A DNA stretch of 63,306 nt, counting the filler, from Globobulimina sp. (Eukaryota), in assembly GCA_003354225.1 (NCBI GenBank). It is 27 parts of 27 records of this genome, joined end to end, with 100 filler letters (N's around TTAATTAATTAA, not from the genome) between each part and the next. Parts side by side here need not be neighbours in the genome. Positions count along the whole stretch, not along the records: positions 42,285 to 44,532 come from PIVH01007900.1; 26 more parts are not named here. One strand, given 5' to 3'. The position numbers and the translations under genes are program-made. The notes under the pieces are model-generated. The model was not told the DNA's origin. It saw nothing but the letters and a program-made list of their open reading frames with translations, and ran no database searches. Position 1 is the stretch's first letter; every line of letters begins with the position of its first letter. Shown here piece after piece: positions 42,790 through 44,840 of the stretch.

Positions 42790-43367
42790 TTTTGGTGTCT
42801 TTTCTATGATGTTTTTTGTGTTTGATTTTATTTGTTCGGCAATTCTTTGTCTGTATTTTTGCGTGTTTTTGAATTGCTAAAAACAAATAAACAAATAAAC
42901 GCATGTTGGTTTCAAATGGGATTTATCTGTGCTTAAATATCCAGACAAAGAACCAACGCATAATTTATGTTTTGTTAACTTACAGAAAACAGATTGTGAT
43001 GATTTGTGTGCCGTGCGTATATTTGCTAAAATCGATGATGTTATGATTGGTTTAGTGGAGGAATAATCAGACTGATGACGATGATTATAAAAAAGTATTT
43101 TACGTTGTTTTTTTGTGTTATTGCGCCATTGTTCTTGATGTTACAGCATGTTTTCATTTAATTGATTTAAAGATGTGTCATATATAAATGTGTTGGTATA
43201 TTTATTCGTTGTTCGACCATGTCAAGTGTCAACCGTTGGTCAAGTCGCGATCGCAAAACCTTTCAAGTGAAGTATAATTTTAGTTCATTCAATGATGCAA
43301 AAACTCAATGAAACACGCTAACATCACGTGATTGAATAAATAACATAAATGAAATTAACTAAAAGAA

Positions 43368-44310
43368 TCAAAGGCAATACGTATCTATTTCATCATCAAT
43401 ATCATGTGCAGCAACACCTATCCTCACCGCATTCGCAACCTTTGATCTCGCACTAGAATCTGCATATTTTCCTATATGCGCCAAATACTTTTCTTTATCA
43501 GGCAATGTACGTTTGACACAATCCATATTCATAACATATTCATACCACTCATGGTATGCCTCCAATTCAGGATCATCTGTGGGAATTATATATTCCTTAC
43601 CACGGTAATATTCAAACACATAATATCTATATGCCCATGGTATCAATGCTATGTCCGCATTGCATAATTGATTACTGTCCAAAAACAATGAGCCACTGGT
43701 TTTACATAATTCCTTTCAAAGTAAGTCTACTGCTCAAAAAGCAAAATGCATATTAAAATTATTGGTGCATGTTTCTTTTCAGCGGCACACTTACTTTTGA
43801 AAAAGCTTTCAAACCATTTAACAATTTGTGGAAATGTTGCATTCGCTCCGATTCTTCCGTGCGAACAAGAACGCCATAGTATGGAGAACAACATTCGCGA
43901 TTTAATTTATCAGTCCATATTTTGGATCTTGCTGCTTCGAATGGATCGGTTGAGATCAATCTATCACCGCCAGCTGCATCACTCATAGAATCAATAAATT
44001 CCACTGCTATTAATGATTGATATATACTTTTAGATTCCACAGATTTGCCATGTTCATTGATTGGAATCAATGTCGGTACGAGAGCTGATGGATTTGCACG
44101 TATTAATTCATCCGATTTCCAATGATACCACCATTCTTTACCAGTACCTGTTACATTATGTTCATCTGTGCGTTGTTGCCACCCGAGAGCTTCAATCCAT
44201 TCATAGTTCATACGAGTGCAGTGATGTTGCAACGCTATGGTAGTGCGGTGTGCAAAGGGGCAAAACCATGCTGATAGGTATCGGAATTTAGGTATTGTTT
44301 TGGTTGCCAT
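43368..44310 (-). CDS. Glutathione S-transferase, omega-like; intron 43713-43794
   Basis: SAWFCPFAHR, NPSALVPTL, QSLIAVEFID and ADIALIPWAYR. An 82-nt GTAAGT...AAAG intron joins KAFSK|ELCKTSGSLFL in frame. Confidence 0.9.
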
Positions 44311-44398
44311 TGCAGGTAGAGATTTTAGTGCTGTAGTTTATTTTCTGTGGCGTAAAAACTGTGCCCAAAACAAAACGTAGAGCATTTATGCCACACTT

Positions 44399-44501
44399 TT
44401 TCATAAACTTAAGTTGCATCAGATTCGCGTAACTTATGTTTGAAACTTAAGTTCATGAAATTACATATTTTTCGAAATATTCAAAACATAAGTTTATGAA
44501 A
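44399..44501. repeat. About 100-bp foldback / MITE-like element
   Basis: TTTCATAAACTTA (44399-44411) and TAAGTTTATGAAA (44489-44501) are perfect 13-bp inverted repeats, with internal AACTTAAGTT repeats. Confidence 0.55.
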
Positions 44502-44840
44502 TTACATTTATTCAGAAGCTGGCACCACGGCANNNNNNNNNNNNNNNNNNNNNNNNNNNNNNNNNNNNNNNNNNNNTTAATTAATTAANNNNNNNNNNNN
44601 NNNNNNNNNNNNNNNNNNNNNNNNNNNNNNNNAAAAACATTTTTGCACAATGTCAATTTTGATATTTAATGACAACCGGCCTGGTATAAAACAGGATTAC
44701 AGGAAGACCTGTGAACATAAATTAAATGCAATTTAAACATAATTATACAAAAGAAAAAAGCAATAAAGTTACAACTTAATTATTACAAGAAACAGTCATT
44801 TTTTACGTTTTCATACACATTAATTCAGCTGCTATTGGGC

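Follow-up and report, generated by a model that had tools for sequence, protein, structure and literature searches.

The introner IE1 of Micromonas pusilla, in the sections of its description on which we draw (PMC11282704), is a MITE-type element present in thousands of copies, with a 3-bp target duplication. A broader set of non-autonomous TIR-DNA introners from aquatic hosts, treated by Gozashti in the parts of two papers used here (10.1101/2022.06.06.494994, PMC12130899), follows the scheme 'carry 5 prime, co-opt 3 prime'; about 72% of those families are unclassified at the level of the superfamily, and the first of the two papers, in the part used, requires at least four similar introns for an introner family. 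Among foraminifera, Reticulomyxa filosa is scored with 0 introner families in the portions used of both survey supplements (PMC12130899, PMC9860276), and 'foramini' has 0 matches in the main text of both Gozashti papers. Our literature search found no paper on foraminiferal introners or on the AGTAAGT family described below.

Here we report a GST intron of Globobulimina sp. (assembly GCA_003354225.1) that is spliced and probably derived from a mobile element, whose parent family can be traced; two other introns are its probable sisters. Its proposed origin resembles that of IE1, as portrayed in the same sections of PMC11282704, in that a short non-autonomous TIR element would carry the donor, take the acceptor AG from the duplicated target and keep the length of the mRNA. 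Unlike IE1 as described there, it belongs to a set of three recognizable, decayed introns, with a duplication of 6 bp proposed for the introns and of 5 bp in young copies; the hairpin fills the whole intron, and the acceptor would combine the last duplicated base with the next host base. The locus shares with the Gozashti TIR-DNA introners, as covered in the cited parts of those papers, their scheme, the aquatic host, the non-autonomous character and, in most cases, an unclassified superfamily. Since three introns were found, against the minimum of four in the family rule quoted above, we file the case as a transposon-derived intron. As to recent activity, the near-identical young ends include none shown as an intron, and the three introns are decayed. 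The mechanism class is already known; what the case adds is its probable occurrence in foraminifera, scored without introners in two surveys through the Reticulomyxa filosa entries cited above, and the linking of a spliced intron to a parent mobile family whose terminus and duplication length are taken from independent copies.

Results

The window, that is, the whole 63,306-nt stretch of DNA analysed, strings together contigs of about 2250 bp, separated by N44-TTAATTAATTAA-N44 spacers about every 2350 bases, so that contigs adjacent in it are not adjacent in the genome. One of these contigs, G000:C7900 (2248 bp), encodes the GST gene on its minus strand. Exon 1 (43795..44310, minus strand) comprises 172 codons from the ATG and matches Pfam GST_N_2 with 26.2 bits against a cut-off of 25; exon 2 (43368..43712, minus strand) includes the stop codon and completes a spliced product of 286 aa. 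Between them lies an 82-nt GT-AG spliceosomal intron in phase 0 (43713..43794, minus strand), nearly all of it one hairpin, which reads GTAAGT...AAAG from 43794 to 43713. Its removal fuses AFSK|ELCKT, and this junction is ungapped against all 40 aligned homologues (40 of the 63 found).

The intron is removed from RNA at these GT-AG ends. Contigs from X2, X4 and X5, three of the four runs compared (two studies), skip exactly the 82 bases on the minus strand; the kind of runs X1, X2, X4 and X5 is not on record, and the skipping contigs span the gene body only, in the manner of transcripts. The joined form is AAA|GAA, with the same junction in all three spliced alleles, and this is the spliced form, as distinct from the AAG GAA expected of an empty genomic site under the insertion model set out below. 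The X1 contig reads through the intron unspliced; its single base difference from the window falls at 43765, in the hairpin loop, and its arms are identical. The first-pass annotation had placed the palindromic intron at 43713-43805, an interval that includes 11 exon bases; the 82-nt intron itself is borne out, as are both inverted arms.

The predicted fold of the intron has an energy of -22.1 kcal/mol (z -3.75), which none of 200 shuffled sequences equals, in line with the comparison the first-pass annotation had proposed. With the 11 exon bases included (43713-43805, minus strand), the values are -27.8 kcal/mol and z -5.0; the plus strand across the intron span folds less well (z -2.8; 3 of 200 shuffles as good). 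The accompanying remark that the other introns checked show no such foldback can be set against 70 introns predicted from 516 kb, which have a median z of 0.04 and of which two reach z <= -3; the screen is crude, contains false calls and misses the GST and phosphoglucomutase introns, so that it serves as a coarse control only and is too noisy for statistics on acceptors or branch sites. In the predicted fold the GST donor is base-paired, as the alternative in the first-pass annotation, a hairpin that sequesters its own 5' splice site, would have it; the spliced contigs nonetheless use this donor. Behind a T-rich tract, three AGs (GAG, CAG and TAG; 43727..43735, minus strand), ending at -20, -17 and -14, are bypassed; each would break the frame, and the distal AG is the only one joined in the contigs of the four runs.

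We read the intron as an inverted-repeat element of 76 bp (43720..43795, minus strand; AGTAAGT ... ACTTACT), an internally deleted and decayed member of a family, followed by one copy of its duplicated target. Base 43795, the last of exon 1, is read as the first base of the inserted element. The proposed 6-bp duplication comprises an exonic copy, TTCAAA (43796..43801, minus strand), and an intronic copy, TTGAAA (43714..43719, minus strand), which match at 5 of 6 positions; length readings of 2, 4 or 6 bp can be made. The acceptor AG takes its A from the end of the intronic copy and its G from the host base at 43713, so that the duplication would supply the acceptor, and element and duplication together account for every base of the intron. 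The 5' arm (43768..43795, minus strand) holds the donor GTAAGT, and the 3' arm (43720..43759, minus strand) yields, on its opposite strand, the GTAAGT at 43721-43726 noted in the first-pass annotation. An 8-bp direct repeat in exon 1, TTTGAAAG, was discarded as a target duplication, since the empty site would be out of frame.

Two further introns have the same build. The facing-hexamer pattern GTAAGT..ACTTAC occurs at 57 sites, about the number estimated for chance; 36 of the 56 sites other than GST were folded, most proving unstructured, and L018, L019 and L016 were chosen among the folded sites by fold and flanks. L019 contains a 77-nt intron (z -3.1) at HRDLK|PEN in a protein kinase, which we take to be of CAMK type, and L018 an 88-nt intron (z -5.2) at ELK-I|TFTPMHG in a phosphoglucomutase (PGM) whose nearest named relatives are those of Ammonia and Reticulomyxa. 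Both are predicted to be spliced, judging from the conserved frames restored by their removal. In the GST, kinase and PGM introns, the exon ends in TTNAAA-A, and the intron starts with GTAAGT and ends in ACTTACT-TTNAAA-G. The target duplication matches at 5/6 positions in GST and at 6/6 in both kinase and PGM, and in each of the three introns the AG at +7 brings back the reading frame. A pattern for the whole build matches these three loci exclusively (control, 0), although the count is a lower bound, as the searches used exact patterns. The three introns do not retrieve one another by BLASTN, and PGM is tied in by its build together with the likeness of its arms to the GST intron arm (21/28). 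For the PGM site, the model predicts Val before insertion where the protein now has Ile; Val stands there in 6 of the 7 best homologues, a common swap that adds little weight.

The arms also lead to a dispersed repeat. The one-arm pattern derived from the introns occurs at 53 sites against 26 and 34 in controls, so that the total is not enriched; about half of these sites, however, are near-identical ends of one repeat. In 28 such young ends, GTAAGT is preceded by A without exception, whereas one position further out the base varies; the family terminus is therefore 5'-AGTAAGT. Comparing the flanks of young copies as 12 x 15 left/right pairs, we found 4 five-base matches against 0.39 expected (p 0.001) and no six-base match; the corresponding duplications, TTTAA, AGAAA, AAGGG and CAATT, are 5 bp long and have no base preference. 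One full young copy, L193, is without a duplication. Three whole copies, of 230 bp, 417 bp and 1.7 kb, have arms built of repeats of about 11 nt, and the 230-bp copy as query gave 82 matches, among which 38 candidates were scored. The 1.7-kb copy (L230:398-2104, G000:C8946), whose arms are likewise repeat-built, carries an inward pair of tRNA-like modules that score 52.8 and 46.6 bits with the Rfam tRNA model, above its cut-off; ARAGORN, which found no tRNA in eight loci, does not call them. Also captured within this copy is part of a host gene on C1895, 240 bp at 90% identity, resembling the gene-fragment capture of Pack-type elements. Its 102-aa frame matches no Pfam family under E 0.05, and no transposase linked to the family was found, this longest whole copy included.

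How close the GST arms come to this family depends on the copy taken for comparison. The 5' arm is 24/28 identical to the family end L295, and 13/15 at positions fixed by no pattern, L295 being a variant end found by a separate pattern; the background for a match of this level is 2.9e-6 per position in 20 unselected contigs. Its identity to L212, another family end, is 21/28. The family-finding pattern came from the intron arms themselves, so the arm score of 14/17 is partly circular. Against a typical young copy, the unfixed positions agree modestly in the GST arms (p 0.01-0.09) and strongly in the kinase 3' arm (p 0.0003), and in the PGM arms there is no match (p 0.16-0.7). The two GST arms show a C/G difference that is also present in the PGM intron, the intergenic copy L087 and the young family. 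From this comparison, the terminal inverted repeats of the GST intron appear to be shared with a dispersed mobile family. The first-pass proposal of a MITE-derived intron is supported: the arms match a family that is dispersed and has a sharply defined end, the target site is duplicated, and two further introns are built alike. Its check for copies by BLASTN in G000 returns the GST intron alone, and it is the arm pattern that reaches the dispersed family.

The family has two end types, L and R. The GST 3' arm, taken on its opposite strand, favours the L type (33 vs 23; 21 vs 17 beyond the fixed positions), and the GST 5' arm has a G that occurs in 6 of 15 ends of the R type and in 0 of 12 of the L type; the kinase 3' arm fits the R type clearly (38 vs 21). 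These arm types suggest that the GST and kinase introns were probably inserted in opposite orientations. The suggestion in the first-pass annotation that such an element can be spliced in either orientation survives in part: each end offers a donor, and the kinase and GST introns apparently differ in orientation, but the host target, rather than the plus-strand CAG within the arm, would provide the acceptor, and the contigs show the GST copy spliced in the sense direction only.

Other searches mark the reach of the family. A covariance model of four elements in both orientations returned, in 242 kb, its training set and L016 (37.8 bits) only, and in a further 206 kb nothing under E 0.06; unselected contigs totalling 173 kb gave nothing credible for the 16-base end motif at up to 4 mismatches. 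Patterns for the outer A-run and the inner arm yielded decayed or doubtful non-intron copies only (L063, L087, L086, L245, L246/L247, L250). Two candidate copies, L061 and L088, proved to be coding sequence, and L186 and L248 were unsupported as introns. At L016:1500-1570 (G000:C2309), between genes, lies a very strong hairpin (z about -9 to -13) whose ends are AGTAAGT; its arms are related, and it has no clear duplication. Short elements with AGTAAGT ends also occur at L246:27-133 and L247:1501-1607, seemingly one locus (4/5 flank match; no intron evidence), and at L250:1300-1411, L245:572-662 and L231:2753-2828, none shown as an intron. L063:1499-1612, L087:1190-1275 and L094:1319-1432 are decayed hairpins with GST-like arms that lie within longer non-coding stretches or a longer intron.

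Discussion

Based on the above data, we think it likely that a short non-autonomous inverted-repeat DNA element entered the GST coding sequence and became an intron. In the proposed sequence of events, a derivative of the 5'-AGTAAGT family of about 76 bp would land in Ser-Lys-Glu codons and duplicate 6 bp. Each of the three introns would then consist of target, element, target and G, with the donor GT at element position 2 and an acceptor whose A closes the second target copy and whose G is the host base that follows, splice sites that are seen in the sequence and, for GST, in the spliced contigs. By simple arithmetic, the mRNA would gain the first A of the element and lose the host G, so that its length would stay constant; Lys would be kept in GST and kinase (the GST change being synonymous), and Val would become Ile in PGM. 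The arms would have decayed later, leaving the hairpin and the plus-strand donor as presumably functionless relics of the terminal repeats.

The choice of the distal AG would call for a branch site close to the end of the intron. Branch sites follow a YTNAY-like consensus, and the first AG downstream of the branch point is the one used; by this rule, the branch should lie after the three skipped AGs. The motif CTTAC, whose A occupies position -10 relative to the end of the intron, is a candidate in all three introns, in GST at 43721..43725 (minus strand), within the 3' terminus of the element. The reversed terminus ACTTACT would thus provide the branch site and cause the upstream AGs to be skipped, a step for and against which we see the chances as evenly balanced; pairing of the upstream AGs within the stem is an alternative. 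At this locus it can be examined directly whether a single terminal repeat is able to give rise to both donor and branch site.

A point against the element reading is the length of the duplication: young copies duplicate 5 bp, yet the three introns need 6, all TTNAAA, since a 5-bp duplication with the same AG would shift the frame by one. The 6-bp cases may represent an older subfamily with a taste for TTNNAA, rare events selected by frame, or a two-A terminus with a 4-bp duplication. It is unlikely, though worth weighing, that the same de novo insertion occurred with other boundaries, by an older, Kolobok-like sister family that has the terminus 5'-AAGTAAGT and duplicates 4 bp, TNAA. Because the target is near-palindromic, duplications of 2, 4 or 6 bp fit the three introns equally well, each length at the price of a single mismatch in total; moreover, the kinase site is exactly TTAA, and Kolobok elements, in the part of PMC9587614 used, have TTAA duplications and RR..YY ends. 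Against these boundaries, TTAA occurs in one of the three introns only, the young terminus has one A before GTAAGT with a mixed base beyond it, and the young duplications are of 5 bp without TTAA preference. We had ourselves considered a TTAA/Kolobok assignment and dropped it once the young duplications proved to be 5 bp and non-TTAA.

We also judge it decidedly unlikely that the element inserted in or beside a pre-existing intron and replaced most of its sequence. This would agree with the kinase site, which is common to a distant paralogue of 38% identity: L045:1508-1580 (G000:C340) has an intron at HRDLK|PEN, as does L019. This intron does not fold (z -0.06), but its first 11 bases are all those of the young terminus and TTTAAA stands near its end, so that L045 may be a second insertion at a codon hot spot; three other kinases examined lack the intron. 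At HRDLK|PEN, either insertions have struck a common run of codons more than once or the intron position is old. Hairpins within longer introns do occur (L094, L063), and because the terminus mimics a strong donor, old donors would look alike in any case. At the GST locus, by contrast, element and duplication fill the intron and leave no room for older sequence. Among 68 metagenome loci encoding GST relatives, 58 span the intron site, and 56 of these 58 are uninterrupted there, including 13 loci, from fewer organisms, with introns elsewhere; many of the loci may be transcripts and none is shown as foraminiferal genomic DNA, and neither a genomic orthologue from foraminifera nor an empty allele turned up. 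In the two others, L164 and L165 (near 2113-2190), which encode a GC-rich GST homologue, an intron lies 4 nt upstream of the position studied here, which would suit an older intron. The comparison tends to speak against an ancient conserved position, one of the three features that the first-pass annotation had named as refuting its reading.

That no mobile element was involved, the hairpin being a local fold-back duplication or having been selected for splicing regulation, is very improbable. The inverted match does extend from the intron into the exon end, and BLASTN finds a single copy; a near-palindromic target would explain the run into the exon, however, and the arms match unlinked loci, their C/G difference recurring in the PGM intron, L087 and the young family. 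Least credible of all is a truly two-way intron in which an antisense transcript splices the 62-nt plus-strand GT...AG span (43721..43782): the GTAAGT and the TTTCTTTTCAG ending at 43782 are present as the first-pass annotation had pointed out, but that cut would leave an element remnant, the contigs of the four runs (which drop rare forms) contain no such joint, and the plus strand across 43301-44330 has no long frame, the longest being 87 aa. The CAG at 43782 lies inside the arm, and the splice signals on the plus strand follow from the inverted repeat as a side effect.

Returning to the insertion of an AGTAAGT-family element as the preferred origin, we compared the parent family with described superfamilies. 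Maverick/Polinton ends, in the portions of the sources used (PMC8097293, 10.1101/2023.08.22.554363, PMC6839031), have AG..CT termini, an (AGT)2 repeat and 5-8-bp duplications; the family here likewise ends in AG..CT, has a short repeat, AGTAAGT, that is not an exact (AGT)2, and makes duplications in the 5-8-bp range. The protein-primed polymerase family PF03175 has 34 matches in G000 (L277-L281 and 29 more), some in frames of more than 1000 codons. Maverick genes, such as those for polymerase, integrase and capsid, were found neither in the 230-bp, 417-bp and 1.7-kb copies nor next to any family end on these short contigs, and no family end lies beside the polymerase at the 5 of 34 loci read, contigs being too short to link ends to cores. 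In the rows of the Gozashti survey supplement covered (4 of 6 places), no introner family is finally classed as Maverick. We therefore regard as doubtful, if instructive, the idea that the parent is a non-autonomous Maverick/Polinton derivative whose ends would act as donor when forward and as branch site when reversed; copies with a 6-bp duplication ending in A before a G would make frame-neutral introns either way, and the frame would filter such rare 6-bp events from a family with mostly 5-bp duplications.

Two other groups share features with the family. As in Kolobok and T2-MITE elements, in the parts of PMC9587614 and PMC6004289 used, the termini are RR..YY (AG..CT here), and one intron can be read as TTAA; unlike in those elements, the young duplications are varied, 5 bp long and not TTAA. 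The KolobokP lineage makes 3-5-bp duplications according to the same parts, so that the parent family may belong to the Kolobok superfamily. The long arms made of short repeats (about 11 nt here) and the variable length, from 230 bp to 1.7 kb, recall Foldback-type Galileo as described in the portion of PMC3573991 used; in contrast to Galileo, no P-type transposase is shown, and the long copy has tRNA-like modules and a captured host fragment. Whatever the superfamily, old element-made introns of this kind escape similarity clustering, yet can be traced via their ends.

Some observations concern the GST gene itself. Among named proteins, the closest come from two foraminifera, Bolivina argentea (81%) and Nonionella stella (75%), after which come mostly unnamed and diatom sequences, up to about 70-76%. 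Together with the PGM relatives, these two point to a foraminiferan host. Outside the two foraminiferal proteins, the named relatives are nearly all from diatoms or other stramenopiles, and lateral transfer of the gene (43368-44310) is possible on these protein comparisons. A second copy of codons 1-47, at G000:C43896:3-143 (L003), has 98% protein identity and ends before the intron; it is probably an allele. Upstream of the GST start, contigs from several runs break or diverge at window position 44316, and a 41-bp direct repeat (78%) at 44399-44517 overlaps a 20-bp inverted pair (90%).
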